Positions 10,611 to 63,996 of a stretch of 64,000 bases of DNA are shown here, in pieces; within the stretch, counting starts at the first letter, position 1; each line of letters opens with the position of its first letter. The notes under the pieces are model-generated. The model was given only the letters and a program-made list of their open reading frames with translations. It searched no databases and was not told where the DNA came from. The position numbers and the translations under genes were made by a program. The DNA is from Candidatus Woesearchaeota archaeon (GTDB taxonomy: Archaea; Nanobdellota; Nanobdellia; Woesearchaeales; SKIA01). The stretch spans positions 93,758 to 157,757 of the forward strand of contig JBJKRI010000003.1 in the NCBI GenBank assembly GCA_046704725.1. Direction: 5' to 3'.

Positions 10611-10713
10611 GTGGGGGTTCCCGAGTGGTCAAAGGGGCAGGACTCAAGCGTCGATTGTGACGGGGATATCCTGTAGCTGAGCGCTTTCGGGGGTTCGAAT
10701 CCCTCCCCCCACA
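10611..10713 (+). tRNA. tRNA-Leu (anticodon CAA) with 19-nt intron after position 37
   Basis: acceptor GTGGGGG/CCCCCAC, anticodon stem CAGGA/TCCTG, loop CTCAAG|intron 10649-10667|A, long variable arm, T-loop TTCGAAT, discriminator A. Confidence 0.8.
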
Positions 10714-10722
10714 TTTTTATGG
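10714..10722 (+). terminator. T-tract terminator after tRNA-Leu
   Basis: acaTTTTTAtgg immediately 3' of tRNA. Confidence 0.4.
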
Positions 10723-10724
10723 AT

Positions 10725-11765
10725 TCACGTGTTTCAGGTGTTCTCCGCCTTGAATTCGATAGATAAGTTTGCGATTTTCAGTGAAATTCTTGGATTGGTC
10801 TGATTTTCCGAATGTCGAGAATTCGTTATTCTCAGGATGCGTGCTTGAAGAATCGCATTTTTCGGATATATCTTGATTTTCGAATTATTGTGTTACAGGC
10901 TTTCAGATACGTGAATTCACTATTTCAGCCACTCAAGGGTTCTGAGCCCTTTGAGGACCTTTAAAATTATTAATTATTGCTTCTCAAAGCCTGAGGAACA
11001 TGAATTCACTCCTTTCAGCTTTCTCAATTCTGTGTGAATTCACTCATTTTTCGGACTGATCGTGCTGCTCCTCACGTGCCTGCAGCGGATCTTGCCTCTT
11101 CTGCTCGATATTCAGGTTACTGTTGGCGTTTCTGTTGTATTTTCTATATAGATATAAATATCATCTACTGAAATTGGATTCTAGAGCTACAGGCTTTGGG
11201 GGACGTGAATTGACGTGTTTACTGATTTTTTGAAATTTTCCGATTTTCTGTGATTTTCGAATTTAATTATAGCTTCTCAAAGGCTGAGGTGTACGAATTC
11301 TCGAGTTCCAATGTCTTTGAAACTGGCTGTTTTGGCTTCAGATCCCGTTCGTTTTGTGGAGTTGGATCCTTCATTTGTGCTATTTTTGGCCTCCGTCGCA
11401 CGCTCTATCTGTCGATTGTATCTTTTTTGATATTTTCTATAATGAAAATAATTGATTTTCCGCTTATTTTCGATCGATTTCTGTGTTTTTGATTCGTGCG
11501 ATATAGGCTTTGGGGGAAATGAATTCTCGAGTTTCGCTATTTTATGGTCTTAAGCTGGATATCTTGGTTTTCTGGCCACGATTCTCGCTTCCCAAAGCCC
11601 GAGGGGGATGAATTCTCGAGAATCAATGATTGAAAACTGGCTTTGTATTACCAAGTATGGAAATATCACACAAAAACCGGAAGATTTCCGGAATGCTTTA
11701 TAATAGATGGTTCCGGCGATGCTGCGATCCGACCCGAAAAATATAGAGTTAAATATTACTTAGTA
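10725..11765. repeat. AT-rich non-coding island with >=7 copies of degenerate ~25-nt motif AGGCTTTgrGGGAnnnTGAATTCnC
   Basis: ~40% GC versus ~60% flanks; no credible ORF; motif copies near 10893, 10985, 11035, 11192, 11272, 11505, 11597; also recurring gattttc and aaactggct elements. Confidence 0.6.
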
Positions 11766-11778
11766 CGACCAGATTGGT

Positions 11779-12042
11779 ATGAGAACTGTTTCTCTCAAGA
11801 TGGCGGACAGTATCCTAGATAGGATCGATGCCCACCTTGAGCGACACAACTTCACGACACGCACGGAATTCATACGGGAAGCCATCCGGGACAAGCTCCA
11901 AGAGCTCGAAAGTGATAGGTTCGAATCAGAAATCCGTAAATACTTCCGGCACCATTCTACCGAATTAGGCAAAGAAATCAACGATATCGAAAGCGACGTG
12001 TTCCGAGAGCTGGAGAACCGCTTCGGAAGACAGCGACGATAG
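11779..12042 (+). CDS. ribbon-helix-helix (CopG family) transcriptional regulator
   Basis: MADSILDRIDAHLERHNFTTRTEFIREAIRDKL RHH motif; TATA aaaatatag ~30 nt upstream. Confidence 0.65.
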   Translation: MRTVSLKMADSILDRIDAHLERHNFTTRTEFIREAIRDKLQELESDRFESEIRKYFRHHSTELGKEINDIESDVFRELENRFGRQRR

Positions 12043-12051
12043 GAGAATACC

Positions 12052-43151: not shown

Positions 43152-43933
43152 ACATGGAGAAGCTCTTCGAGGACGGTAATGTGCTCGCTTTGCACATCAC
43201 GGGCGTCCTGCCCGCGTACATCAACACGCTGCGTCGTTACATGGCCAGCCGCGTGCCGACCATGGCGATCGACAGCGTGGAGTTCAAGAGCAACAACAGC
43301 ATCCTGTACGACGAGATGGTCGCGCACCGTCTCGGATTGCTCCCCCTCACCACCGACCTGGAGACCTATCGCCTTCCCAAGGAGGAATGGATCGAGCCCA
43401 CGGGCGATCCCCGCGTCGAGGTCCAGCTCTCGTTGAAGGTGCCGAAGGTCAAGTCAGAGACCGTGGTCCGCGCCAAGGATCTCTCGACCAAGGACAAGAA
43501 GATCGTGCCGGTCTACCCTGACATGCCGATCGTCAAGCTCATGGAAGGACAGGACATCGAGCTCGTCGCGACCGCTCGCCTCGGTATCGGGGAGGGGCAC
43601 GCGAAGTGGAGCCCCGGTCACGTCTGGTACCGCCATTTCCCGCATATCGCCATCAAGAAGCAGCCCAAGGACCCCAAGGCACTGGTTGAGCGCTTCCCCG
43701 GCGTGTTCGAGGTCAAGGGCGGCAAGCTCGCGCTCACCAAGGACGCCGCGTACCGGATGCCCGACATGGATATCGCCGACGACGGGATCGAGGTCTCGTT
43801 CGCCGACGACGACTACATCCTCACGGTCGAGAGTTGGGGACAGCTCACGCCCAAGGAGATAGTGAATCAAGCGTTCAGTGCGTACGACGACCAGCTCGAC
43901 GAGTTCGCCAAGCTGGTGAAGGAGATCAAATGA
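43148..43933 (+). CDS. rpoD: DNA-directed RNA polymerase subunit D (Rpo3)
   Basis: [26 protein letters not shown] dimerisation motif; ATGA overlap with S11. Confidence 0.8.
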
Positions 43934-44015
43934 GGGTGTGCCGGAGTGGTCAAACGGGCACGCTTGAGGGGCGTGTGGCTTAGTGCCTGCGAGGGTTCGA
44001 ACCCCTTCACCCTCA
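43932..44015 (+). tRNA. tRNA-Leu (anticodon GAG)
   Basis: acceptor GAGGGTG/CACCCTC, anticodon stem CACGC/GCGTG loop TTGAGGG, long variable arm, T-loop TTCGAAC, discriminator A. Confidence 0.8.
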
Positions 44016-44031
44016 GACAACGGAGACAACG

Positions 44032-49660: not shown

Positions 49661-50587
49661 ATGCCTGATCTCGATATCATCATCATCGGCGGCGGTCCCG
49701 GCGGCCTCGCGGCAGCGCTGTACGCCAAGCGCTATGACATGCGCGTCAAGGTCATCATGGGGGAGCCCGGCGGATTGCTCACCACGACCCATATCGTGGA
49801 GAACTATCCCGGCATCCTGCCCATGTCTGGCCCGGACATGATGGACGTCTTCTTGGAGCAGATGAAGCGCTTCGAGGTGGATATGGCGACCGAGTGGGTC
49901 AAGACCATCAAGAAGACCGGCGACGGATTCGAGGTCTGCACGGACGAGAAGTGCCACACGTCCAAGTCAGTCATCCTGGCCACGGGCAGCAAGCACCGCG
50001 CGCTCGACGTCCCCGGTGAGAAGGAGTACCAGACCAAGGGCGTATCGTACTGCGCGACCTGCGACGGCTTCTTCTTCAGGGACCAGGTCATCACCGTCGT
50101 CGGTGGCGGCGACTCCGCGGCGAAAGAGGCTCTCCTGCTCGCGGACTACGGTTCTCACGTGTACGTCATCGCGCGCTCCACGCTCAAGGGAGAGCCCATC
50201 AACAACCGTCGCGTGCGCGAGCATCCGAAGATCACGGTCATCGAGGGGACTGTCGTCACCGAGGTCCATGGCGACGGCGAGAAGGTCACGAGCGTCACGC
50301 TCTCTAAGGAGTTCGAGGGATCCAAGATGCTCGAGACCGCGGGGCTGTTCATCGCTATCGGGCACCTTCCGCAGACCGAGCTCGCCAAGCAGCTCGACGT
50401 CAAGCTCAATGCGCGTGGGGAGATCGAGATTGACCGGACCTCCCGCACGTCCCTCTCGCTCTTCTACGCTGCGGGGGACTGCACCGACACTGTCTGGAAG
50501 CAGGCCATCATCAGTGCGGCGGAGGGCTCGCAGGCTGCCAACAGCGCTTACGAGGATATCACGAAACGTTCGGTCAAGCCGAAATAG
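49661..50587 (+). CDS. trxB: thioredoxin-disulfide reductase
   Basis: IIIGGGPGGLAAALYA FAD motif, CATCDGFFF redox-active CxxC, VVGGGDSAAKEAL NADPH motif. Confidence 0.85.
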   Translation: MPDLDIIIIGGGPGGLAAALYAKRYDMRVKVIMGEPGGLLTTTHIVENYPGILPMSGPDMMDVFLEQMKRFEVDMATEWVKTIKKTGDGFEVCTDEKCHTSKSVILATGSKHRALDVPGEKEYQTKGVSYCATCDGFFFRDQVITVVGGGDSAAKEALLLADYGSHVYVIARSTLKGEPINNRRVREHPKITVIEGTVVTEVHGDGEKVTSVTLSKEFEGSKMLETAGLFIAIGHLPQTELAKQLDVKLNARGEIEIDRTSRTSLSLFYAAGDCTDTVWKQAIISAAEGSQAANSAYEDITKRSVKPK

Positions 50588-50649
50588 GTCTGCCGTCACT
50601 GCGCAGAAGAGCAAAAGCTTTAAGACTCCTGCTTTCGGAATGCCCTGTA

Positions 50650-51201
50650 ATGGCGAGAATGCCTTCACGTTCGAACGTCTGGATTATCCTCGGTGTTGTG
50701 CTCGTTGTGCTCGCTGTGGTGTTGCTGGTGAATAATCTCGAATCTTCTACCTCCAGCACGGTGACGACCAGTCCGGATGGCACGCTCGCGGGCGGACAGC
50801 AGCAGACGACCCCATCACAATCACCGTCCGCCGCGACCGGCGCGGTCACGTACCAGATTGATGCGTCCGGCGTCAGCGACCTCGCGGGCGTGCAGCTCAC
50901 GCTCACTTATGATCCTTCTGTCGTGCAGTACGTGAACGCGACCCCCGGTCCCTTCCTCGGCACGGGCAAGGATATCTTCTACCCGACATCCACTATCCAG
51001 ACCGCTCCCGGGCTCGTGCGTGACCTCGTCCTCGTGCGGCTCGCCAAGCAGGGCGTCTCCGGTGGCGGGACGGTCTTCTACGTGCATTTCAAGCGCGTGT
51101 CCACGGGCGATCCGAACATCCATATCTCGGATGCCCTGGTCGCCAACTCTCAGGCGCAGAAGCTGCCTTCCGCGGATATCCGCGGGCAGCTCGTCGGCTG
51201 A
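50650..51201 (+). CDS. secreted cohesin-like domain protein
   Basis: signal/TM anchor, Ser/Thr linker, LTLTYDPSVVQYV..FYVHFKRVSTG beta-sandwich pattern. Confidence 0.4.
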   Translation: MARMPSRSNVWIILGVVLVVLAVVLLVNNLESSTSSTVTTSPDGTLAGGQQQTTPSQSPSAATGAVTYQIDASGVSDLAGVQLTLTYDPSVVQYVNATPGPFLGTGKDIFYPTSTIQTAPGLVRDLVLVRLAKQGVSGGGTVFYVHFKRVSTGDPNIHISDALVANSQAQKLPSADIRGQLVG

Positions 51202-51237
51202 GGATACCTTTAAAAAAGGCGCCCGATTCGCACCCCT

Positions 51238-51432
51238 ATGATCGTTCCGATACGCTGCATGAGCTGCGGAAAGCCCATCGCCCACCTCTGGGATGAGTTC
51301 AAGGAGCGTTCCAAGGCCCAGGACGCGGGTAAGGTGCTCGACGACCTCGGTCTGACGCGCTATTGCTGCAGGGCCCAGATGCTCGGTCACGTCGACCTCA
51401 TCGATACGGCCGCCCGCTTCAAGCGATTCTGA
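51238..51432 (+). CDS. rpoN: DNA-directed RNA polymerase subunit N (Rpo10)
   Basis: PIRCMSCGKPIAHLWDEF...RYCCR zinc-binding Rpb10 fold; TATA ctttaaaaaagg upstream. Confidence 0.8.
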   Translation: MIVPIRCMSCGKPIAHLWDEFKERSKAQDAGKVLDDLGLTRYCCRAQMLGHVDLIDTAARFKRF

Positions 51433-51466
51433 AAGCCTTATTAGGGAGGACTCTCCCGTACGGTGC

Positions 51467-51994
51467 ATGGAAGACGACGACGTGCGCAGGTTCCTCAAGA
51501 ACACCTTTCCAGAGCTGTTGCGGATCACCCGCGAATACATCAATGAGCTCGATGCGATGAAGGAGCTCTTGCCGGAGGGCCATGAGTCGCAGCTCGAGGA
51601 TGCGCCCAATGCGGTGGTCTTGTTCGCCCAGCATTGGGAGAACGCCCGGGAGCTCAGGGATTCCTTGCGATCAATGGGTGATCTCGATGGATTCTTCGAT
51701 GCCCTCGTGAAGAAATATCGCTACCTGACGCAGGGGACTCCCATGTTCGCGGCGTTCAAACTCCTTCGCGACAAGCAAGACGACAACGCAAAAAGGCTCT
51801 CCCTAATCGTTGATGGGTGGATCGAGACTGTCCGCGGTGGTGGGGTCATGGAGGTCCCGATTCCAGGAAACTGTAGGGAGGAACTCTCTCAGCTCCAAAA
51901 GATTGCGAATGCCTTTAACACGTCGCTGCACGCTTTCATGGATGACGTCATCTTTCGGCTGGCGAATCCTTCCAAGACCTTCGGCCCCGCATGA
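51467..51994 (+). CDS. hypothetical protein
   Basis: 175-aa ORF. Confidence 0.35.
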   Translation: MEDDDVRRFLKNTFPELLRITREYINELDAMKELLPEGHESQLEDAPNAVVLFAQHWENARELRDSLRSMGDLDGFFDALVKKYRYLTQGTPMFAAFKLLRDKQDDNAKRLSLIVDGWIETVRGGGVMEVPIPGNCREELSQLQKIANAFNTSLHAFMDDVIFRLANPSKTFGPA

Positions 51995-52050
51995 AATGAG
52001 CTTTGTTGTCGAACGCGATGTTTTTTAAGAGCGTTTCCTGTCCTCGCCGC

Positions 52051-55000
52051 ATGGATTTCGTCGCGATCGCCGCAAAATGGCAGGAACGCTGGGAAAAAGA
52101 CGCTATATTCGCCGCAAAAGAGGTTAAAGACGGCCTATACGTCCTGGAGATGTTCCCCTATCCCAGCGGGACCATGCACATGGGGCACGTGCGCAACTAC
52201 AGCATCGGCGACGCCCTGGCGCGCTTCCGCTGGATGCAAGGCCATAGCGTCCTGCATCCCATGGGCTTCGACAGCTTCGGCCTGCCCGCCGAGAACGCCG
52301 CCATCAAGCAGAAGGCGGACCCCCGCGCGTGGACCGAGAAGAACATCGCGCACATCACCGAGCAGTTCAAGCGCCTCGGATTGTCGTACGATTGGTCGCG
52401 CACGCTCGCGACCCACACGCCCGAGTACTATCGCTGGAACCAATGGCTCTTCCTCGCGTTCCTCGAGAGAGGCCTCGCCTACCGCAAGGAGGCTCCGGTC
52501 AATTGGTGTCCGAGCTGCCAGACCGTGCTCGCGAACGAGCAGGTCATCGACGGCAAGTGCTGGCGCTGTGGAAGCGAGGTGGAGACGCGCAATCTCAAGC
52601 AATGGTTCTTCCGCATCACGTCCTACGCCGAGGAGCTCCTCGCTGACCTCGGCACGCTCGGGGAGTGGCCCGAGCGCGTGCGCACCATGCAGCGCAATTG
52701 GATCGGCAAGTCCACCGGCGCGCGCGTGAGCTTTCCCGCCAAGGACGGCGCGGTCGAGGTGTTCACCACGCGTCCGGACACGTTGTATGGCGTGACCTAT
52801 CTTGTGCTCTCGCCCGAGCATCCGCTCGTCGCTCGCTTCACCGTCAAGCAGAAGGAGAATGAGGTGCAGGCCTACATCGCCGCCGCCAAGAAGAAGACTT
52901 CCATCGAGCGCACGGCGGAAGGAAAAGAGAAGACCGGTGTCTTCACGGGCGGCTCTGTCACGCACCCCCTCACCGGGAAGGAGATCCCTGTCTGGGTCGC
53001 TGATTACGTCCTGATGGATTACGGCACCGGAGCGGTGATGGGCGTTCCCGCGCACGACCAGCGCGACTACGACTTCGCCTCCAAGTACGGCATCCCCATC
53101 GTTCCCGTCGTGAAGCCCGAGGACGGCAAGATGCCGACGGACCGTGCCTTCGTCGCCGAGGGCACGCTCATCAACAGCGAGGATCTCGACGGCCTGTCCA
53201 CCGACAAGGCCATCGCCGCTGTCGCAAAGCGCTTGGCAAGCGACGGTCTCGGCCGGGCCGAGACCCAGTATCGCCTGCGCGACTGGCTGGTCAGCAGGCA
53301 GCGATACTGGGGAACGCCGATACCCATCGTCTACTGCGAGGAATGCGCGAAGCACGATGTCTTCATGTTCCACGGCTGGGAGGACGGCAAGGACGCCGGC
53401 TTCTTCCCTGCGATGCGCGAGCACCTCTCATCCCTCGGCCACCGGCCGCATGCGGAGAGCTTCCCGGGAACTGACGCACCTGATTTCGACGTCTGGTTCG
53501 AGAAAGCGGACGGCATGCTCGATGGGCATGATAGGCCGACCGTCATCGGGCATTCCATGGGCGGCCTGCTCTCCCTCAAGCTCGCCGAGAAGCATCCATT
53601 GCGGCGGCTCGTGCTCGTCGCTCCCGTCGGCCACCGGCCATCGGAGGCGTACTTCACGCAATACAAGGATAAGCTCTCCGAGGAGGACCTCGCTGTCTAT
53701 CGCGCCTATCAGGACCGCCCTTTGGACGTCGCTGCCATCAAGGGCAATGTGTCGGACATCACGTTCGTCTTCGGCGGCAAGGACCCTTGGATAACGACGG
53801 AGATCCGCGAGAAGTACCGTGCCGAGTTCGGCGATGTCGCGCATTTCATCGATCTGCCTTTTATGGGGCACATGTCCGAGAGCGAGGGCGTCAAGCGCGT
53901 GCCCGAGCTCGAGGCCTTGTTCGTGCAAGAGGCCGCCGCGGTCCCCGTCCCCGAGAAGGACCTGCCCATCCTGCTCCCGACGGACGTCTCGTTCTCCGGC
54001 GAGGGAAATCCCATCGCGACGAGCAAGAGCTTCGTCGAGACGACCTGCCCGAGGTGCGGCAAGCCCGCGCGACGCGAGACGGACACGATGGATACCTTCG
54101 TGGACAGCAGCTGGTACTACCTGCGCTATTGCGATCCGCACAACGGCGAGCGCATCTTCGATAATGATAAGGCGGACGCCTGGATGCCTGTCGACCAGTA
54201 CATCGGCGGCATCGAGCACGCCATCCTCCACCTGCTCTATAGCCGTTTCATCACCAAAGCGACGCGCGACATGGGACTGCATTCCGTGGACGAGCCGTTC
54301 GTGCGTCTCATGACGCAAGGCATGGTCCTCAAGGACGGCGAGAAGATGTCCAAGAGCGTCGGCAATGTCGTCGACCCCTTGCCGCTCATCGACAGGTACG
54401 GTCCGGATACCGTGCGTGCCTTCATCCTCTCTGCATCCTTGCCGGAGAAGGAGATGGAGTGGTCCGACGAGGGTGTCGCGGGTGCGCACCGCTGGCTGCG
54501 CCGCGTCGAGGCGCTCTTCGAGAAACAGCAAGAGCGTAGGGAGCGGACCAGTGCTGATGCGTACTTGCGTAGCGCGGTGCATCGCACCATCAAGGACGTG
54601 ACCGCGCAGTTCGAGGGCATGCGCTTCTCCCACGCGATCAATTCGCTCATGGAGCTCACCGGCGCCATGGCGCGCTACGCCAAGAACGGCGTCCATCCGG
54701 ACGTGTGGTCCGAGGCGACAGAGGCGCTGCTCAAGATGGTCGCTCCGATCGCGCCGCACCTGGCCGAGGAGATCTGGCACCGCAACCATGATGATTACAT
54801 CAGCCTCGCGTCATGGCCTGTCGCGGACGAGTCCGCCATCGACCGTGCGGCGGAGGCCGGAAGGGACCTTGCCGATCGCACGCGCGATGACCTGCGCGAA
54901 GTCCTCTCTATCGTCGACCTCTCGCCGAAAGAAGCGGTATTGTTCGTTCCCGCCGATTGGAAGTACGCTTTCGTCTCCGCGCTCAAGGACGCATTGGAGG

Positions 55001-55281
55001 GGTCTTCTGATGCCGGAGCGATCCTCAAGGAGCTGATGAAGACCGATCTCAAGCGCCACGGGAAGGAGATCTCTAGGCTCGTCCCGCGCTTCGTCAAGGA
55101 CCGCTCCAAGCTTCCCGCGCACCTGCTCTCTAGGGAGGAGGAGGCGGGCGCCTTGTCGGAGGCGGCTTCCGCATTGGGCACGGAGTTCGGCCTGAAAGTG
55201 ACGGTGTTGGCGGAAGAGAAGGCGAAGGACGCGAAGGCTTCGCAGGCCTTGCCTGGCAAGCCTGCCATACTTCTACGATGA
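52051..55281 (+). CDS. leuS: leucyl-tRNA synthetase (bacterial type) with inserted alpha/beta-hydrolase domain
   Basis: [41 protein letters not shown]1 editing region; ~195-aa YdeN/RBBP9-like serine hydrolase module (FMFHGW...GHSMGG...) between CEEC and CPRCG zinc-knuckle halves; TATA ttttttaaga 21 nt upstream of [10 protein letters not shown] start. Confidence 0.9.
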
Positions 55282-55928
55282 TATCCGTCCGGCCGTACAA
55301 GGATTCCGACCGTTCCGCCGTGCGACGCATCCACTTCGATACCTGGCTTGTCGGAAGGTCGTTGCGTATGGTCGGCGCGAGCCGGGAGCGCGTCGACGCG
55401 TTCATCAACCCGTACATCACGCGTTGGAAAGAGCATGCTTTTGTCGCCGTGGACGGAAAGCGTGTGGTCGGCTACGTCGTCGGAGCGTTTCCCGGGGAGG
55501 AGCAGGGCAACAACGACCATGTCAGGATCGTCTTGCGCAATGTGCTGTCCTGGCCCGTCCTCTCGAAGGGCGACAGGCGTTTCTGGGGCTGGCAGCTACG
55601 CATCATGCTGTACCTGATGACGCACCCCGGAACGGACGTCCTTGCTGTCAAACCACCGAGGGACGCCGCTCACCTGCACGTCAATCTCGCGAAGGACGCG
55701 CGCGGCAAAGGTATCGGTAAGAAACTGCTCGAGACGTTCTTTTCGCATCTGCGAAAGAACAGTATCAAGAAGGTCTTCGCACAGAGCTGGGGCACGCGCA
55801 TCAATGACACGAGTGGTTTCTGGCGCAAGATGGGCTTTCGCTTGGCAGCGCATGCGAAGACGCGCTTCTGGAAGGAGTATTTCCCCGAAGAGAGTGTTGA
55901 ACTGACGATGTGGGTGAAGAAGCCATAG
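55278..55928 (+). CDS. GNAT family N-acetyltransferase
   Basis: [14 protein letters not shown] motif A. Confidence 0.6.
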
Positions 55929-55935
55929 AGAATTT

Positions 55936-56391
55936 CTACGCGGACTTTGCACGTTGCCGGTATGCTGCTGCGGTGACCGGCTGGATATGTGCTTCTTCGA
56001 GTTGCTCGACCACCTCTGCGAGCTGGCTCTCTATCCATCGTTTCCCGCTCCCGAGCATGCCTGTCTCTGTCCCCATCAGTTCGGTCTCTGATCGATAGAC
56101 GCTCCGCGTGAATGCTCCTTCCTTGAAATGCTGCCATTTGTCTCCTCGTGGCAGTGACCCGTCGTGCACGAGTGCGATGGACACCTGCAACAGCCCGTAA
56201 CTCTTTCCTTTCGTTGTTCCGGCCGGGTTGTATGTGCGCAGATGGGCCCAGAGGACGAACGGATCCTCTCGGGCGAGCTTCGTCAATCCGCTCTTCCCCC
56301 AGCTCTGACGGCCTGACAATCCCGGAATCGGTCTGTCGGCGGATTTCACCAGATAATGATGTTGTGGTGCCACTTCGGGCGGGATGTGCAT
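55936..56391 (-). CDS. hypothetical protein
   Basis: 151-aa ORF; TATA gggaatatatacc ~25 nt upstream. Confidence 0.35.
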   Translation of the reverse strand: MHIPPEVAPQHHYLVKSADRPIPGLSGRQSWGKSGLTKLAREDPFVLWAHLRTYNPAGTTKGKSYGLLQVSIALVHDGSLPRGDKWQHFKEGAFTRSVYRSETELMGTETGMLGSGKRWIESQLAEVVEQLEEAHIQPVTAAAYRQRAKSA

Positions 56392-56429
56392 GGCGCTGTA
56401 GAGCAGAGGGGGTATATATTCCCTACGTT

Positions 56430-56710
56430 AGAGGGACGAGAATGCGTGCCCGGGGGTGGACCGCGCCGGCATGCGCAGCTGACCCTGCGGGTCCCTCCCC
56501 CACGCGACCCGCGATACAGGCGTGCGGGCGCTGAGGTCTGCTCCATTCCTGGCCTGAACCGGTTCACGCCAACGCACCTCACCGAGGACGTGGGATCGAC
56601 GGTCGCCGCAGGACTGCGCGTGACGGGTATAGCCGCCCCCCGGGCTTCGGCCCCGGATGAGGACGGTTCTCCGGTGACAGGGCACGCCCGGCGCCCCAGC
56701 CTAGCAGGGG
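56430..56710 (-). ncRNA. ffs: signal recognition particle RNA (7S/SRP RNA)
   Basis: ORF-free ~72% GC block; minus-strand TATA catttataagtg (56725-56736) ~25 nt upstream; 5' region GCCCUGUCACCGGAGAACCG matches archaeal Alu-domain CUGUAACCGGAAACC; helix-8-like CAGGCCAGGAAUGGAGCAGACC matches conserved CAGGUCCGGAAGGAAGCAGC; long 5'/3' terminal complementarity. Confidence 0.55.
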
Positions 56711-56741
56711 GAAGAACGGCCTGTCACTTATAAATGCGGCG

Positions 56742-57722
56742 CTATGGCAGCACGCCCGTCACGATCACGTTGCGCGTGTACAGGTCTCCTGTATCCCCCT
56801 GGATGACGCAGACGTTCTCTGTCGTGTTGCGGATGATGAGGTTCTGCGAGCCTGAGAGCGGTATCTGGTTGGCCTCCTCGTGCGGTGTGCCTTCCAGGTA
56901 GAGGTCTCCCGTGTCCGTGATCCACGCGGTATCGCCATTCGCGGTGTGCACGGTGAAAGCGTTGCCCGGCGCGGGTCCCGTGGCGTTGACGTGGATGTCT
57001 CCCGCGAGCAATACGCGCCCGTGCTTGTCGAAGAGCGCGACCAGTCGCCCGTTGTGGTCGGTGATATTCAGGTGTCCGGTCTGCGAGATGCAGTAGCCGA
57101 CGTGGCACATGTCTCCCGCTGCGCAGTCGCTGTCGACGTGGCAGTCGCTCGGGATGTTCACGTGCTGGTACGCGCCGGCGGTGTTGTTGATGGTCGTGTT
57201 GATGGTCCCGTTCGTGGGGGTCTGGGGCGTGTTGATGAGCTGCGGCGAGACGTAGTGGATGCTGGAGAGGGTGAAGTTGCCTCCGGTCACGCTGACCTGC
57301 AGGTAGAACGGCCCTTCCATCGTCTGGTTGCAGGTCTGGTCGCACTCCTGATCGAGGATGTGCGTGTACGTCAGGTTCGTCCCGGTGCCCAGCCGCACGA
57401 CCGTCCCGCCCTTGTTGAGCAGGAAGCTCGCGTTGCTCGGCGTCGCGGGAGCGGTGTAGCTCGCAACGTGCCACGAGCCGTTCGGCCCGACGAGCTGGAC
57501 ATTCACGCTGCCGCTTCCCGTGTAGCGTCCGTCGAGCGTGAGGCTGGTCAACTGGTTCGGCAGTGTCAACGGCACGACTCCAGAACCCGTCAGGTTGATG
57601 TTGAGGTTCTGCGTCTGCTCACCGACCGCGACCGAGAAGCCGCTGATGCCGGTGTTCGCGAACAATGCGAATGTCGCGACGATGCCGAGGAGGAATCCGG
57701 AGAGGATGAGCTTCTGGTTCAT
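56742..57722 (-). CDS. secreted Thr/Asn-rich beta-rich surface protein
   Basis: N-terminal TM/signal, many NxT/S sequons, Cys-rich segment; ATGA-coupled to upstream tail-fibre-like gene. Confidence 0.45.
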   Translation of the reverse strand: MNQKLILSGFLLGIVATFALFANTGISGFSVAVGEQTQNLNINLTGSGVVPLTLPNQLTSLTLDGRYTGSGSVNVQLVGPNGSWHVASYTAPATPSNASFLLNKGGTVVRLGTGTNLTYTHILDQECDQTCNQTMEGPFYLQVSVTGGNFTLSSIHYVSPQLINTPQTPTNGTINTTINNTAGAYQHVNIPSDCHVDSDCAAGDMCHVGYCISQTGHLNITDHNGRLVALFDKHGRVLLAGDIHVNATGPAPGNAFTVHTANGDTAWITDTGDLYLEGTPHEEANQIPLSGSQNLIIRNTTENVCVIQGDTGDLYTRNVIVTGVLP

Positions 57723-59683
57723 TGCAATGTCACCACCAGTCCTTGCGCGGAGTTCGTCACCGTGCCTCCGCTGAGCTGCACGGGCGCGTTGTAGTATTCC
57801 GGCTGGATGAGTACCTCGATGGTCGAGTCGCTCGTCGCTGGTTGCAATGCACGTCCGATCACTTCACCGCTCGCTGTCGCTTTGGCGCCCACGCCCGGCG
57901 TGGAGGAGATGCCGATGCGGTCGCCGATGCTGATGTTACCATTCACTGTGGAGACGCGCATATAAGCCTTTCCGGTCGTCGCGACCGGGTAGCCGCCGCT
58001 CTGCGCGGGTCCTGTCACGATGCCGATGATCGGGTCGTCGGTGTTGTTGGCCTTGACGACGTCGCCGGCGTTCGTGGTGTCGAGCGCGACCAGGTCGCCT
58101 CCCGAGAGCAGTTCTGTGGAGTTGTACAGGTCCGTCGCGGACGCGACGCCGATCGGCTTGCCTTTCTGGAGGCTGTCGATCTCGGCCTGCTGTTGCTGCA
58201 ATGCCTTCACGATGGTCGGCACCATCGCCGTGTAGCTCACTGCCAGGTGGCCGTCGGGGGATGTCGCGACCGCTTCTGGTATCGTCGTTTGCACGTTCTG
58301 CGCGAGGAAGCCGTGCTGCACGCCTGCCTTGGGGCGGTCCTTCCAGCTGAAGTCCACCACGTTGAGCCCCTGGATGCGGGTGAGCCCGTTGATTCCTGAG
58401 TTCTGTATGCCGGTCTTGAGGCGCTGGTCGCTTACTGTATAGAGCTGGAATGTGCCGTTGTTGGCGATGTAGCCGACCTGCGTCCCGTTCGCTGTCAGCG
58501 CGTTGAGATAGTACGTCGTTCCGCTGCCGTTGTATGCTCCTGCGCTGATCTGTATGCCGTAGCGGTTGCTGTTGTTGCCGTCGTTCTTGAAGTACGCGGC
58601 GTATCCGCTCGGCGCGTTCACGTTCACGCTGATGTTGCCGCGCGTGAACAAGGCACCGTTATGCTCGATGTAGAAGCTCGTGTCCCTGTTGCTGCTGTTG
58701 GTTCCGTTGCCGATGATGAATGCCTGGTCGCCCGCGACGTAGCTGTTCCCGGTTCCCTGCAGCGTGTTGTATCGTCCGATGACCGCCTGCGCGTAGCCCT
58801 GTGCTGTCAAGCCGAGGCCTCCTGGCACCGAGCTGTAGTATCCGCTTGCCGTGTTGGCGTTCCCGCCGAGTATCGTGCCGTAGTATCCGCTTGCCGTGTT
58901 CCCGGAACCGCCGCCGACGAAAGCGTCCTGTCCGGCGGTGTTGCCTGACCCGCCTGCGACGACTGCGTAATCATTGTTCGCCAGGTTCTGGTTCCCACCG
59001 CCGATGAACGTCTCGTAGCCGGTCGCATTGTTCTTGTTGCCTCCCGCGACGGTGCTTGTCACGCCGCTCGCGATGTTCTGGCTGCCTCCGCCGATCGATG
59101 CTCCGGCATTGCTCGCGGTGTTCTGGTATCCCCCGCTGACTGTGCTCTGCGCGGCGCTCGCGGTGTTGCGCATGCCGCCGCCCACGACGCTCTGGTTGCC
59201 GCTCGCTACTTGTGTGGCGCCGTTCCGGTCGGTCTGCAGGTCCACCGCGTTGGCTCCGCGAGCGTTGCCGCCGCTGCTGACGATGCTGCCGTTTATCGTG
59301 AGCACGCCGTTCACGAACAGTGCTGTGGTGGGGCTCGAGGTGTTGATGCCGACAAAGCTGTTCGTGTTGTCCACGAAGAACGCTCCCGCGCTCAGGTTGT
59401 TCGCGCTGCTAACGAGACTGACCAGCGCGCTCGTGTTCGTCCAGCCGCCTCCCGAGCCGCCGCCGCTCGGCCAGGTCGTCTGGCAGGACCCTGCCAGGCA
59501 GATCCGTGTGGTCGCATTGAGGGTGCCGTCGATGGTCACATTGCTCGGGAAGATGAAGTTGCCCGCGGCGAACGTCCCGCCGCCGATCTCGCTCGCGCTG
59601 TGCCCGGGGTTCGGCGTGTACGCCATGGCGAGCGGCAAGAGCAGCAATACCAGGAGGATGAGTGGTTTACGCATGCTTCTCAC
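57719..59683 (-). CDS. tail-fibre-like surface protein with internal peptidase S74 intramolecular chaperone domain
   Basis: signal peptide; GNTASG/GGNQN pentapeptide-like repeats; SDQRLKTGIQ...GLNVVDFSWKD...HGFLAQNVQTTIPEAV...YTAMVPTIVKALQQQQAEIDSLQ matches S74 (SDxRxK autocleavage and helical tail); ~145 aa extra after chaperone. Confidence 0.65.
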   Translation of the reverse strand: MRSMRKPLILLVLLLLPLAMAYTPNPGHSASEIGGGTFAAGNFIFPSNVTIDGTLNATTRICLAGSCQTTWPSGGGSGGGWTNTSALVSLVSSANNLSAGAFFVDNTNSFVGINTSSPTTALFVNGVLTINGSIVSSGGNARGANAVDLQTDRNGATQVASGNQSVVGGGMRNTASAAQSTVSGGYQNTASNAGASIGGGSQNIASGVTSTVAGGNKNNATGYETFIGGGNQNLANNDYAVVAGGSGNTAGQDAFVGGGSGNTASGYYGTILGGNANTASGYYSSVPGGLGLTAQGYAQAVIGRYNTLQGTGNSYVAGDQAFIIGNGTNSSNRDTSFYIEHNGALFTRGNISVNVNAPSGYAAYFKNDGNNSNRYGIQISAGAYNGSGTTYYLNALTANGTQVGYIANNGTFQLYTVSDQRLKTGIQNSGINGLTRIQGLNVVDFSWKDRPKAGVQHGFLAQNVQTTIPEAVATSPDGHLAVSYTAMVPTIVKALQQQQAEIDSLQKGKPIGVASATDLYNSTELLSGGDLVALDTTNAGDVVKANNTDDPIIGIVTGPAQSGGYPVATTGKAYMRVSTVNGNISIGDRIGISSTPGVGAKATASGEVIGRALQPATSDSTIEVLIQPEYYNAPVQLSGGTVTNSAQGLVVTLQ

Positions 59684-59962
59684 CTCCCTTGTCCGGCGTG
59701 ATGACGCGCAAGAAGACGTTCCCTTCGAGGTCCTCGACGAAGCGGAATTCCGTGCCGGGTTCCCATCCCTTGTCCCGCACGAGGTCTACTGGGATCGTCA
59801 GTTTGTACTGCCCATTATTCTCGACGAGCTTGACCACGGGACAGCAGTACTTAATAAATACTGCTTTTATACTTTTCTATGGATGAATAAATACTGAAAT
59901 AGTACTGGAACTGATCGTTCAATAGATTTATGTATCGTCATATCCGCTGGATGGACGGGAGG

Positions 59963-60739
59963 ATGGCACACATCGCATTTCTTGGGACGGGCGGGGACGC
60001 CTATACCGTCGCGCGGCAGGTCCGTGGCGCCGGAGGCATCATCATCGAGCTCGAAGGCCAGCAATTCCACCTCGACCCCGGCCCCGGAAGCCTTCCTATG
60101 GCAAAACAGATGGGCATCGACCTGCGCAAGAACGTCGCGTTGCTCATCACGCACGCGCACCTCAACCACGCGGGCGACGCGAACGCCGTCCTGTCCGCTA
60201 TGAGCTACGGCGGCATGGACCCGCACGGCGTGCTCATCGCGTCAGAGAGCGTCATGAGCGGCGCTCCGGGAATCTCCAAAGCGATCTCCTCGTTCCACAT
60301 GCGCTGCGCGGAACGCGCATTGTCCCTCGTGGGAGTCCCCCGGGTGGGGATCAACACAGTGAATGTCAACATCCTGCCCGCAGTGCACAACGACCCGACC
60401 GCCGTCGGCTTCCAGCTCGTCGCGGGCAAGGACCGCATCTCCTACACGGGCGACACGGGATTGACGCGCGAGGTCATCGAGGCCCATCGCGGCGCGACCG
60501 TGCTCATCGCGTGCATGCCCCTTCCCGCGGAAGAGCACTCCGCCACGCTCCTCAACGTCGAGGACGTCATCGAGCTCGCCAACGAGATCGGGCCGCGCAC
60601 GCTGATCGTCACGCACTTCGGCCACCAGCTCCTCAAACAGGACGTGCGCGCGATCGGCCGCGACATCAGCAAGCGCGTCAAGGCCCATGTCATCATGGCC
60701 GAGGACGGCCTGACGCTCGACTCCAAGACCTATCGCTGA
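59963..60739 (+). CDS. MBL-fold metallo-hydrolase
   Basis: LITHAHLNHAGD HxHxDH motif; start at MAHIAFLGTGG. Confidence 0.65.
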   Translation: MAHIAFLGTGGDAYTVARQVRGAGGIIIELEGQQFHLDPGPGSLPMAKQMGIDLRKNVALLITHAHLNHAGDANAVLSAMSYGGMDPHGVLIASESVMSGAPGISKAISSFHMRCAERALSLVGVPRVGINTVNVNILPAVHNDPTAVGFQLVAGKDRISYTGDTGLTREVIEAHRGATVLIACMPLPAEEHSATLLNVEDVIELANEIGPRTLIVTHFGHQLLKQDVRAIGRDISKRVKAHVIMAEDGLTLDSKTYR

Positions 60740-60778
60740 ATGCGAGGGAATAAATAGGGTCGTCCTCGATATACACGG

Positions 60779-61819
60779 ATGCGATTGTGGTGGCTGGCGA
60801 TCCTCGCCGTGATAGTTGTAGCCGTCGTGCTACTCGTCCGTCCCGGAACGCCGTCTTCAGCGCGGCAGAATCTCCCGGTACGCACGCCAGGAGCGCGCAC
60901 TCCGAACAATACGCTCCAGGGCAGCAGCGCTCCCACGAATCCTCCTTCACAGACGAACACGACACCGAGCGCCCCGAAGACCACCACCGCAACAACGCTT
61001 ACGGACACCATCAACGTGCACGCGATACCGTTGGGCGACGGCAAGGTCTCGAGCGCGCCCAAGCAAGGATACGTCTATTCCTGCGCCCAGACCTTCCGCA
61101 CGGGCGGCGCCCAGCACGACGGCAACTGGATACACGGCGACACGTGGGACCTCACGCAGAAGCTCTCGGTGCAGGGCGCGCTGCATTGGCCCAACGCGCA
61201 GTTCACCGTCACCACACAAGGCGACCGTCGAATCATCACGGGAAACGGATTGCCCGTGGATTCGATAACTGGCAATTTCCCCATCAGTCCCAGCGACCCG
61301 GCGTACCAGATCGACCGCAACCCGAACACCGTCACTCCCTACAATCTCTCCCTCTCGCTGCCACTGGACCCGCAAGCGGCGGCGCAGCCGTCGTGCGTCC
61401 CCATGGGCATGGTCGGCGTCTCCCTCAACGGCGTCGCGATCTTCAACGCCCTCGACGCCGCGGGACGCGACGCGGTCGCCCACGAGGTGCAGGACGCCTG
61501 TTCGGGTCATCCGCAGGAAGCGGGCATCTATCACTACCATGGTCCCAGCCCGTGCATGCCCGGCGTCAACAAGAGCCTCACGCTCGTCGGCTACGCCCTG
61601 GACGGCTACGGCATCTACAGCATGTACGACGCCAACGGCACGGAGATCACCGATTCGCAGCTGGACGCGTGCCACGGCGTGACTTCTGTCGTCCCCTGGG
61701 ACGGCAAGATGGTCAGGATGTACCACTACGTGCTCACGCGCGAATATCCCTATACGATCGGTTGCTTCCACGGGACGCCCGTGCATGTCGGGGGGCCGCA
61801 GAAGCCCCCGCGTCCCTAG
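60779..61819 (+). CDS. secreted YHYH-domain protein
   Basis: TM anchor, Thr/Pro linker, conserved GIYHYHG and VRMYHYV motifs. Confidence 0.55.
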   Translation: MRLWWLAILAVIVVAVVLLVRPGTPSSARQNLPVRTPGARTPNNTLQGSSAPTNPPSQTNTTPSAPKTTTATTLTDTINVHAIPLGDGKVSSAPKQGYVYSCAQTFRTGGAQHDGNWIHGDTWDLTQKLSVQGALHWPNAQFTVTTQGDRRIITGNGLPVDSITGNFPISPSDPAYQIDRNPNTVTPYNLSLSLPLDPQAAAQPSCVPMGMVGVSLNGVAIFNALDAAGRDAVAHEVQDACSGHPQEAGIYHYHGPSPCMPGVNKSLTLVGYALDGYGIYSMYDANGTEITDSQLDACHGVTSVVPWDGKMVRMYHYVLTREYPYTIGCFHGTPVHVGGPQKPPRP

Positions 61820-62712
61820 AGCCCGAGCGCGAGCAGGCCGAAGAGCGCCGCGTATCCAACGAAACAGCCCGCTCCCAGGAACGGCATCGCCGGGTAGAAC
61901 CGGTCCTCTTTCGCGAACACGAACAGCCCGATAAGCGACAGCGTCGCAAACACGACGATGACGCCCGACAATCCCAACGCGGCGAGCTTGGAGTAGCCGT
62001 TGCGGATGAGGTCCTGGAGCACCGCGCTCATGAATATCAGGGGAAAAGCGATGTCCCCGCCGCCGAGCACCGCTGTCCGTCCTGATTCGGACTTCCTGGG
62101 CTTGCTCGATACAGGCGGAGGCGCGCCAGTCAGGCGGACCTTCTTCTGCTTCTTGTCGTACGGCACGAGCAGGCCAGCGAAGAGCTGGCTCTGCGTCTGG
62201 AACTCTGCCATGCGCACCATATGCTTGCTGCGCCAGACCGCGTACATGTCGTAGACTGCGATAAGGACAAGGACGCCGGCCGCTATGGGCACTGTCAGCG
62301 GCAGCCCTTGGGCGATGATGACCGCGATTCCCGCATACACGAGGATCTCCGTGACATTGTGCACGATGAGGTTCGGCTTGAAGATCTTCCACGCCGTGAG
62401 CCCCAGTGATAAGATGATCGCGACAATCCACGGCATGATCACATTGAGCGAATAGGTCATGGACAGCCAGACCGCGAGGAAGAACCAGAGCTTCCACACC
62501 TTGTAGAGCCGGAACCGGATGAGCGCGAGAAGGACTATCGTCCCGATGAGCACCCCGATGACCAGCACGCTCGCTCCTTGCGCGGCTTGCCCTGTGGAAA
62601 CCGTCGGTGGACCTGCCGGAGGCGTTGCGAGCGCGATGAGGCCGAGACCCACGAGCTGCGCGACCACGAAGAACGCGACGAGCAGCATCGTGACCACGGC
62701 GGTGTGCTTCAT
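61816..62712 (-). CDS. presenilin/signal-peptide-peptidase family (A22) GxGD intramembrane aspartyl protease homolog
   Basis: polytopic; AVYDMYAVW (YD motif) and LGGGDIAFPLI (GxGD motif) in consecutive TM helices, PAMPF near C-terminus (PAL-like). Confidence 0.5.
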   Translation of the reverse strand: MKHTAVVTMLLVAFFVVAQLVGLGLIALATPPAGPPTVSTGQAAQGASVLVIGVLIGTIVLLALIRFRLYKVWKLWFFLAVWLSMTYSLNVIMPWIVAIILSLGLTAWKIFKPNLIVHNVTEILVYAGIAVIIAQGLPLTVPIAAGVLVLIAVYDMYAVWRSKHMVRMAEFQTQSQLFAGLLVPYDKKQKKVRLTGAPPPVSSKPRKSESGRTAVLGGGDIAFPLIFMSAVLQDLIRNGYSKLAALGLSGVIVVFATLSLIGLFVFAKEDRFYPAMPFLGAGCFVGYAALFGLLALGL

Positions 62713-62748
62713 GCGAAGGCTTCTCCCTAGCGGCTTAAAAGAGTATCG

Positions 62749-63996
62749 CTACCAGCCGGGATCCTGGTCCCAGGCCTTGATCTGGCCCCAATAATAGGAC
62801 ATGGCGTGGTCGGGTCCCTGGTTGAGGTTCCTTCCGAGGGCGAGGCCGATGATCTTCGTGTTCGGGCCGGTGTTGAAATTCTCGCGGTCGAAGATGAGCG
62901 TGTTGTCTATCCAGAACTTGACGACCCCTGTCCCGTTGCCGAGCTTCCAGAAGACGCGGTAGCGATGCCATTGTCCGTCGTAATACGCGTGGCTCGAGGG
63001 GGCAGGCTCCACGAGGAGTCCTGGGTCGGAGGGCTTTCCCGGACCGTTGTAGTAGAGCGCGATGCCTTCATTCTCCGGAGCGCCCACGGCGAAGTTGTCT
63101 CCGGCCTGCCCGATCTTGGCTTCGAACCTGCTGCTCACGTCCGGCGCGCCGAATAGCCACTTAAGATCCGGATTGCTCTGGCAGCCCCACGATGACGGGG
63201 CGACCGTCGTGAAGTCCGTCGGGAATCTCGCGTACCATTCCACCCAGACTTGCGTGACTGTGTGTGGGAAGACGAGGTTGTCTCCGAGCATGTAGTCCGT
63301 GCATCGACTGCTGCTGTTCGTCCTGTTCTCGAATGTGTATCGCACTGATTGTGTGAGCGTCCCGTATCCTGTCGTCTTGTCGAGATGGATATCCTGTGGG
63401 TTCCAGTATTCGCTGTTGTAGATGCCGCGCGGGTCGGACAGCAGGTCTGCGGTGCTCGTGTATTCGCTGAAATTCTCGACGAAGAATGGCTGCACGCTCG
63501 TCCCTCCACCTGTTCCTCCTCCGGAGCTTGTTGCGACGGAGAAGCTGATCGGGTAATCGGTGGTGTCGTTGTTTCCTGCTGTGTCTTGGCATTTCACGTA
63601 GTAGTTGTATGATTGTCCGTCTGAGAGCCCCGACACGGTTGTCGAGTGCATTGTTCCTCCGGTGTTCGAGAACGTGTTCGCCATATTCGCGTATGCGGTG
63701 TTGGCTGTTGTGCTGTACTTGCATGTCGCGTTCTCGTTCGTCGTTACTGACATGGTGGTGCTCGTCGTTCCCGAAGCGAGCGGGCTCGATGGCGAACTAC
63801 CGCTGATGACTGGAGGTGTGGTGTCCGGTTTGGGTATCCAGGCGGTCCAGTTATCGAAGTCAATGTTCCCGTTCTGCGCCGGTGACCCGAGCCAGCCGTT
63901 CCCGAACACGTCCCAGTGGTCTACGGGCAGGTAGAATTGCGACATGTCGGCGGGGTCGACGTGGTCCACGCTGTCTTCGAGGAGCGCTCCGTCCAC
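62749..63996 (-). CDS. secreted protein with Ser/Thr-rich linker, Ig/FN3-like and concanavalin-like C-terminal domain (N-terminus may lie beyond window)
   Basis: TPPVISGSSPSSPLASGTTSTT linker; C-terminal WHRYRVFWKLGNGTGVVKFWIDNTLIF resembles ConA-like lectin/glucanase jelly roll. Confidence 0.4.
   Translation of the reverse strand: MDGALLEDSVDHVDPADMSQFYLPVDHWDVFGNGWLGSPAQNGNIDFDNWTAWIPKPDTTPPVISGSSPSSPLASGTTSTTMSVTTNENATCKYSTTANTAYANMANTFSNTGGTMHSTTVSGLSDGQSYNYYVKCQDTAGNNDTTDYPISFSVATSSGGGTGGGTSVQPFFVENFSEYTSTADLLSDPRGIYNSEYWNPQDIHLDKTTGYGTLTQSVRYTFENRTNSSSRCTDYMLGDNLVFPHTVTQVWVEWYARFPTDFTTVAPSSWGCQSNPDLKWLFGAPDVSSRFEAKIGQAGDNFAVGAPENEGIALYYNGPGKPSDPGLLVEPAPSSHAYYDGQWHRYRVFWKLGNGTGVVKFWIDNTLIFDRENFNTGPNTKIIGLALGRNLNQGPDHAMSYYWGQIKAWDQDPGW

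Follow-up and report, generated by a model that had tools for sequence, protein, structure and literature searches.

Signal recognition particle (SRP) RNA is present in every cell. Within this RNA, SRP19 binds to the helix 6 hairpin, which also contacts helix 8 through the adenosine clamp. The bacterial large SRP RNA works with a single SRP54-family protein at its S domain, and Bacillus also uses HBsu on the Alu domain. For the archaea, a 2010 review regarded helix 6 as likely to be present in every archaeon and described helix 1, in which the two ends of the RNA pair, as found in most of them; no DPANN lineage appears in its feature table (PMC2905702). Here, we analysed a 64-kb stretch of contig JBJKRI010000003.1 from a Candidatus Woesearchaeota archaeon (hereafter the window), in which an SRP RNA gene of ~264 nt lies on the minus strand at 56443-56706. 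The RNA works like, and descends from, archaeal SRP RNA; helix 6 and helix 1, which both belong to the published description, are missing from it.

The window was scanned with the Rfam models. Archaea_SRP (RF01857) matched 56443-56706 of the minus strand over model positions 1-317. Its score of 98.5 bits compares to a gathering score of 96.5, and the E-value in the search of the whole window was 4.6e-21. Between 56200 and 57000, Archaea_SRP was the sole family reported at E <= 1 apart from four lower-scoring overlapping matches, all to families of the SRP clan, and with permissive thresholds no family from outside the clan matched there. An initial annotation, made from the sequence alone, had called a probable SRP (7S) RNA on the minus strand and proposed an Infernal search with RF01857 as the check; the search supported both the identity and the strand, though with a score just above threshold. 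The Alu motif (GCCCTGTCACCGGAGAACCG, also written GCCCUGUCACCGGAGAACCG; 56683-56664) and the helix 8 motif (CAGGCCAGGAATGGAGCAGACC, also written CAGGCCAGGAAUGGAGCAGACC; 56556-56535) on which that call drew are present on the minus strand and fall on positions that are invariant in the family. The absence of helix 6 and helix 1 had gone unnoticed. The Rfam alignment runs end to end, yet it leaves most of helix 1 without a match and passes over model positions 141-180, 40 in a row; this reduction of the RNA accounts for its marginal score.

The Alu and helix 8 motifs are 117 nt apart in the window compared to ~160 nt in the Rfam model. We scanned one genome per species for the two motifs at a spacing of 100-130 nt, which retrieved at least 120 loci. 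Among the matches listed, 88 loci had a bacterial or unspecified label (Bacillus-type large SRP RNAs) and 32 were archaeal, consisting of Stygiolobus (L051) and 31 short forms. The short forms were nearly all from DPANN archaea and came from Micrarchaeota, Iainarchaeota, Aenigmatarchaeota, Nanohaloarchaeota, Woesearchaeota/Nanoarchaeota, Altiarchaeota and Undinarchaeota. The motif spacing in the 31 listed short forms was uniform (113-121 nt) and their length was about 270-278 nt; 18 of the 19 that were scored matched Archaea_SRP at 131-188 bits over ~273-278 nt. Four metagenome-assembled genomes labelled 'uncultured Methanosarcinales archaeon' (L004, L028, L048 and L093) also carry DPANN-type SRP RNAs without helix 6, and L004 has a signal-peptide peptidase homologue nearby as well. 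The 2010 review records helix 6 for true Methanosarcinales (PMC2905702), and these contigs or their labels are probably mis-binned or mis-assigned.

Since the same spacing pattern found 88 bacterial-labelled large SRP RNA loci with the same helix inventory (helices 2, 3, 4, 5 and 8), the window RNA could be proposed to be a Bacillus-like large SRP RNA, naturally without helix 6, that was gained by horizontal transfer. When profiles were compared using nhmmer, however, a profile of the 88 bacterial RNAs matched the window RNA with 9.4 bits and only over the 30-nt helix 8 core, whereas a profile of the archaeal short forms, from which the window and its subgroup (see below) had been left out, matched it over the full length with 79.8 bits. 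Because this comparison favours the full-length archaeal match, bacterial acquisition is not supported. Archaea_SRP is also the best-scoring family in the clan, and the archaeal TATA promoter and the conserved archaeal synteny described below point in the same direction. We therefore regard a bacterial origin as extremely unlikely and treat the RNA as archaeal by descent.

The window RNA and the archaeal short forms (n = 32) were aligned and folded using RNAalifold, independently of Rfam. Helix 6 did not appear in the consensus, which consisted of helices 2, 3 and 4, an uninterrupted helix 5 and helix 8. Compensatory changes were present in 67 of the 76 consensus pairs, and 90.6% of the cells (76 pairs in 32 sequences) were paired. 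The covariation score was 0.740 compared to 0.239 after shuffling, with none of 500 shuffles reaching the real value, and was 0.13-0.18 when the partners were slid by 1-3 columns. Helices 2, 3 and 4 were 98-100% paired, with compensatory changes, and the 56 pairs of helix 5 were 75-94% formed, nearly all with compensatory changes. The loop-loop contact of the Alu domain, a pseudoknot between the loops of helices 3 and 4, was 98% formed and all five of its pairs co-varied (AGCGG/CCGCU, CAUCC/GGAUG, GGGCG/CGUCC and others). In helix 8, CAGGCC.GGAA.GGAGCA was invariant in 32/32 sequences; the pair closing the tetraloop co-varied (CG in 15, AU in 8, GC in 4, UG in 4 and UA in 1), as did the pairs of the stem.

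This consensus places the elements of the window RNA as follows, all on the minus strand. The Alu domain (56649-56701) comprises helices 2-4 and the UGUNR motif. Helix 2 pairs GGCU (56701-56698) with GGCC (56652-56649), helix 3 pairs 56697-56692 with 56684-56679, and helix 4 pairs CCGG (56674-56671) with CCGG (56656-56653); the UGUNR motif reads UGUCA (56679-56675). The loop-loop contact (56661-56689) joins GGGCG of the helix 3 loop (56689-56685) to CGUCC of the helix 4 loop (56665-56661), with 5/5 pairs formed one alignment column out of register. The 5' strand of helix 5 (56566-56644) carries a conserved internal-loop GA (56597-56596) and CGUCC (56590-56586), and its 3' strand (56449-56531) carries GGGUCGCG (56510-56503) and a conserved GGAGGG (56498-56493). 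The GA is invariant and lies opposite GGAG (56498-56495), forming a conserved internal loop that is a candidate for the 11-nt 5e motif of archaeal helix 5. Helix 8 (56532-56565), the SRP54-binding element, has a GGAA tetraloop (56549-56546) closed by an A-U pair, an asymmetric loop GAACC/UCA and a symmetric loop UCAGG/AGCAG, with the core UCAGG-CCA-GGAA-UGG-AGCAG at 56557-56538.

The initial annotation had also drawn attention to extended 5'/3' complementarity. Both pairs of strings exist and pair perfectly in the window, but GCGUGCCC/GGGCACGC is paired in 58% of the cells and GGGGCGCCGG/CCGGCGCGG in 37% (n = 32), both fail in the four closest relatives, and both clash with the strongly co-varying helices 3 and 5. 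They are thus not conserved pairings, and reflect chance in a GC-rich sequence.

The window RNA forms 68 of the 76 consensus pairs (family range 55-75), the eight unformed pairs all being in helix 5. It keeps 36/36 bases that are invariant in the other 31 sequences and 22/27 near-invariant ones, and two of its five deviations from the latter make up a compensatory swap of G-C to U-A in helix 8. Compared to its closest relatives it is ~62% identical, with 17-21 double compensatory changes. The retention of these pairs and bases together with the double changes suggests that the gene is under structural selection and is not a decayed copy. The locus might instead be a pseudogene, decaying or redundant, while another locus in the genome encodes the working SRP RNA. 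In favour of this, the Rfam score ranks third from the bottom among 24 scored archaeal short forms and lies 2 bits over threshold, and two canonical helices have disappeared. Against this pseudogene explanation, in addition to the intact bases and pairs, the TATA box is at the correct distance, the locus is syntenic with its orthologues, and the same reductions are present in relatives from four other assemblies; the Rfam scan also found no other SRP RNA in the 64-kb window. We consider decay to be very unlikely.

The gene occupies a 350-bp gap (56392-56741) between two protein-coding genes, a 326-aa gene upstream whose stop codon is at 56742-56744 and a 151-aa gene downstream (55936-56391, minus strand) whose ATG is at 56391. 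The GC content is 72.7% over the Rfam match, 69.7% over 56430-56736 and 60.2% over the whole window; the ~72% given earlier is right for the RNA itself. Several open reading frames of 78-125 aa overlap the gap, and one of them, for example the 85-aa frame at 56428-56685 (minus strand) or the 125-aa frame at 56356-56733 (plus strand), might be taken for a protein-coding gene. In the 85-aa frame, the best of them, GC at the three codon positions is 0.71/0.64/0.77, unlike the ~0.6/0.4/0.8 of real genes in the window, so that their earlier description as GC-artefact frames was fair. A gene caller run on an identical public contig (Logan L121) called the 151-aa gene and no gene in the SRP RNA interval, and conservation tracks base pairs, not codons. 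The probability of a coding gene here is negligible. Folding energy did not discriminate (z of -0.26 for the minus strand and -0.38 for the plus strand) and is uninformative because of the ~73% GC.

To place the skipped part of the model, we compared the individual Rfam alignments. The skip of model positions 141-180 (40 positions reduced to 0) is shared by the window and by all four relatives compared, L026, L106, L077 and L087, which are Micrarchaeota and Iainarchaeum. In Stygiolobus (L051; 194.5 bits), the same positions form an 18-bp hairpin with a GGAG loop. Because Stygiolobus has a GGAG-capped hairpin there, the skipped positions correspond to helix 6 with its GNAR tetraloop. At the would-be branch site in the window (56573-56590, minus strand), the bases are predicted to pair with the 3' strand of helix 5 instead, and alignment columns 136-149 co-vary on both sides with columns 199-213, which is helix 5 across the helix 6 site. 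Judged from the aligned sequences, helix 6 is absent from the window RNA and from the 31 other archaeal short forms among the matches listed, nearly all of them DPANN, and helix 5 appears to run straight into helix 8.

A vestigial helix 6 would be an alternative arrangement, in which 56590-56573 (CGUCC...GGUGCG or CCUC-GGU-GAGG) folds into a small hairpin, either constitutively or as an alternative conformer, and interrupts helix 5. Most of the 32 sequences allow a GUCC-N4-GGAC hairpin, with 76% of the cells paired, and the stem of the mini-hairpin is a perfect 5 bp in L048, L061 and L122. In L048 and L061, where this 5-bp mini-hairpin is possible, the helix 5 pairing at the former helix 6 site is poor, which counts against an uninterrupted helix 5 in these two members. 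However, variation in the mini-hairpin is nearly all one-sided (wobble), with both-sided changes in 4 cells over five pairs, whereas columns 142-144, its own 3' side, co-vary both-sided with helix 5 columns 204-206 in 4, 12 and 22 cells. The 5' strand of the mini-hairpin, CGUCC, is the partner of the GGGUCGCG/GGGUYGCG segment in archaeal SRP RNAs generally, and the window itself forms 3/5 of the aligned mini-hairpin pairs. A stem of 4-5 bp with a non-GNAR loop could not, in any case, supply an SRP19 site. A vestigial helix 6 is thus improbable, and we favour a helix 5 that continues across the site. The hairpin potential deserves mention in its own right: at columns 131-144 (56590-56577 in the window), at the branch point of helix 6, a 4-bp GUCC-N4-GGAC pairing potential is found in nearly all 32 sequences and is kept by wobble-preserving transitions. 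This potential may be a relic or reflect an alternative conformer, or it may arise by coincidence from two pairing partners that are both G/C-rich.

The second reduction is restricted to a subgroup of five sequences, made up of the window, L048, L061 and L069 from genomes, and L122, the one further member found by a metagenome scan with a subgroup-specific pattern. Only 2-3 of the 7 helix 1 pairs form in the five members, leaving (U)GC/GC(A), and the window retains a 3-bp UGC/GCA. In most DPANN relatives, the ends are paired in a helix 1 of 7-9 bp. The sequences therefore indicate that helix 1 is absent from this subgroup, including the window. Covariation at the level of the subgroup rests on five sequences because the scan added L122 only. 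The Archaea_SRP scores of the subgroup were 126.6, 116.8, 98.5 (window), 92.5 (L048) and 80.2 (L061) bits, so that two of the five, L048 and L061, were under the gathering score of 96.5. Since the subgroup straddles the Rfam cut-off (80-127 compared to 96.5 bits), SRP RNA will be reported missing in some DPANN genomes though it is present. The lack of helix 1 alone is not grounds against membership of Archaea_SRP, because the helix is described as found in 'most' archaea (PMC2905702).

The promoter is consistent with the loss of helix 1. The TATA box, TTTATAA, is located at 56728-56734 on the minus strand and starts 8 nt after the stop codon of the upstream gene. The string originally proposed, catttataagtg, is present there (56736-56725, minus strand), and its position is conserved in the closest relatives. 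TTTATAA has only 4 copies on both strands of the 64 kb. L048, L061 and L069 have a conserved TTTA(T/A)AA in the corresponding position; no TATA box was found upstream of L122. From the first T of the TATA box to the A of CUAGGC there are 31-32 nt in the window, L048, L061 and L069, compared to mostly 35-39 nt in relatives with helix 1, placing the box 5-7 nt nearer the RNA body in the subgroup. The spacing of ~25 nt proposed in the initial annotation agrees with an RNA start ~23 nt after the TATA box, but the Alu motif quoted with it begins ~45 nt after the box. The position of the TATA box implies a transcription start near G56705, which would leave no transcribed 5' strand for helix 1. At the other end, GCA (56445-56443) is the last conserved sequence, and a pyrimidine-rich tail, UUCUCGU, comes after it. 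Further downstream, AATATATA (56413-56420, minus strand) reads as a likely TATA box for the next gene, 29 nt before the ATG of the 151-aa gene. This suggests that it is the promoter of the 151-aa gene (55936-56391), that the mRNA of this gene would be leaderless, and that this promoter abuts and bounds the 3' side of the SRP RNA gene.

Collectively, these results make us highly confident that the locus is a functional SRP RNA (7S RNA) gene of a DPANN-type archaeon with a reduced architecture. Several points weigh against this conclusion. The Rfam score is only 2 bits above threshold, and the subgroup without helix 1 is small (five members). Both transcript ends are deduced from promoter geometry and from where conservation in the subgroup ends, not from experiment, and there is no clear oligo-T terminator, only the pyrimidine-rich tail. 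The window covers 64 kb, and a second, canonical SRP RNA or an SRP19 gene may lie elsewhere in the genome. As a gene call, the locus is ordinary housekeeping; its architecture is modestly interesting, at the level of the lineage and not of this locus. Public genomes already contain the RNA sequences, and Rfam recognises most of them.

An RNA with no helix 6 has no SRP19 binding site. PF01922 is SRP19, and the M. jannaschii SRP19 sequence matches it. PF01922 is listed as absent from all 152 Woesearchaeota genomes of one study (PMC8421398) and is reported to be universally absent in Parvarchaeales and Jingweiarchaeales (PMC10134863). In both papers PF01922 is an unnamed completeness marker to be discarded, and the SRP is not mentioned. 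Searching the 64-kb window by tblastn with SRP19 and SRP54 queries, among them the M. jannaschii SRP19, gave no significant match, a result that says little at 64 kb. From the missing helix 6 and this literature, the particle is most likely a two-component SRP of SRP54 and RNA. Bacteria with a large SRP RNA have this layout too, but the present RNA is archaeal by descent. On balance, we lean slightly towards the same composition for the DPANN archaea as a group, including this organism, with SRP54, a 7S RNA that has an Alu domain and no helix 6, and SRP19 and helix 6 missing together. No archaeal SRP RNA without helix 6, and no statement naming SRP19 as absent in DPANN, was found in the searchable literature, though an earlier description is possible.

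The following scheme for the particle is proposed. The TATA box of the gene would drive transcription from near G56705, giving an RNA of ~264 nt. Sequence comparison shows that it folds into an Alu domain (helices 2, 3 and 4, UGUNR and the 5-bp loop-loop contact) and a long continuous helix 5 with helix 8 at its tip, and that all universally conserved bases of helix 8 are present. From established SRP biology, SRP54 would bind the loops of helix 8 directly, FtsY docking and GTPase activation would be supported by the GGAA tetraloop together with conserved internal loops in helix 5, and the Alu domain would reach the elongation-factor site of the ribosome. Given the missing helix 6 and the published marker distribution, SRP19 would play no part.

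That helix 6 is uniformly missing from the short forms agrees with the published and uninterpreted absence of the SRP19 marker, and together they point to a seemingly simpler SRP. A group-wide two-component DPANN SRP, if true, contradicts the standing description of the archaeal SRP as RNA, SRP19 and SRP54. If the DPANN branch is deep, the form without helix 6, laid out like bacterial large SRP RNA, could be the ancestral archaeal state, and helix 6 and SRP19 a later invention; otherwise, it would be a clean example of the joint loss of an RNA element and the protein that partners it. How helix 6 and SRP19 are distributed across the Archaea is thus a character that bears on whether the simplicity of DPANN archaea is ancestral or reduced.

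The surroundings of the gene are also conserved. Near the SRP RNA (50000-63000), the window encodes a leucyl-tRNA synthetase (LeuRS), a hydrolase of the metallo-beta-lactamase (MBL) fold (59930-60739) and a presenilin-type signal-peptide peptidase (61816-62712; PF06550), and ~10 Woesearchaeota/Nanoarchaeota loci (L067, L024, L061, L069, L101, L116, L068, L072, L089 and L004) have homologues at a distance of a few kb from their SRP RNA. This shared neighbourhood supports the orthology of the SRP RNA loci and, with the labels of related metagenome-assembled genomes, suggests an organism of the Woesearchaeota/Nanoarchaeota kind. The placing of an SRP RNA beside a signal-peptide peptidase hints at a functional link.

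Several other features of the window were seen in passing. The LeuRS (52003-55281, plus strand; 1092 aa) is of bacterial type and contains an inserted serine-hydrolase/alpha-beta-hydrolase domain at residues ~454-640 (~53362-53916), which matches PF06821 (1.1e-08) and PF00561 (2.1e-08). In the LeuRS of L067 (55% identical), the regions that align with residues 5-453 and 639-1092 adjoin each other in the DNA, so that the insert is missing. Just upstream of the SRP RNA gene, two overlapping genes on the minus strand (56742-57722 and 57719-59683) both encode secretion-type N-termini. The 654-aa product of the second has a Peptidase_S74 (endosialidase intramolecular chaperone) domain at residues 418-472; the 326-aa product of the first had no family match. 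Elsewhere, Rfam lists a tRNA at 10611-10713 (plus strand) that ARAGORN misses; its anticodon loop contains an archaeal-type intron of 22 nt, and its variable arm is long. A tRNA-Leu(gag) reported by ARAGORN at 43931-44016 (plus strand) is not listed by Rfam at the gathering threshold. Directly after the intron-containing tRNA, ~1.3 kb (10714-12051) is empty in a gene call based on GC at third codon positions and contains small reading frames with translations of AT-rich appearance. It holds one of the four TTTATAA copies (11697-11703) and an 87-aa frame resembling a ribbon-helix-helix regulator (11779-12042), and could be a small integrated element.

How the window RNA relates to known SRP RNAs can be stated for each class. 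The 4.5S RNA (Bacteria_small_SRP) has a similar helix 8 core and an S domain with SRP54/Ffh only, and L048 passes the gathering threshold of Bacteria_small_SRP only. In contrast to the window RNA, 4.5S RNA is ~100-115 nt long and has no Alu domain. The Bacteria_large_SRP type, represented by the B. subtilis scRNA, has helices 2, 3, 4, 5 and 8 and no helix 6, and is retrieved by the same spacing pattern, but its sequence similarity to the window RNA is limited to the helix 8 core and its promoter is of a different type. The DPANN short forms with helix 1 (L026, L106, L077 and L010; ~270-278 nt) are similarly without helix 6 and have the same fold and spacing, and several also share the gene neighbourhood of the window. 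They differ in having a helix 1 of 7-9 bp and scores of 131-188 bits, whereas the window subgroup has a closure of 2-3 bp, a TATA box 5-7 nt closer and scores of 80-127 bits. With canonical archaeal SRP RNA (RF01857; Methanocaldococcus jannaschii, Archaeoglobus fulgidus and Sulfolobales), which is its best-scoring Rfam family, the window RNA shares an Alu domain with UGUNR and the loop-loop contact, a long helix 5 with the CGUCC/GGGUYGCG segment and the GA/GGAG internal loop, a helix 8 with the GGAA tetraloop and the SRP54 motif, and an archaeal TATA promoter. It differs from the canonical form in having no helix 6, and with it no GNAR tetraloop, no adenosine clamp between helix 6 and helix 8 and no SRP19 site, and in having no helix 1, with a length of ~264 nt compared to ~300-317 nt.

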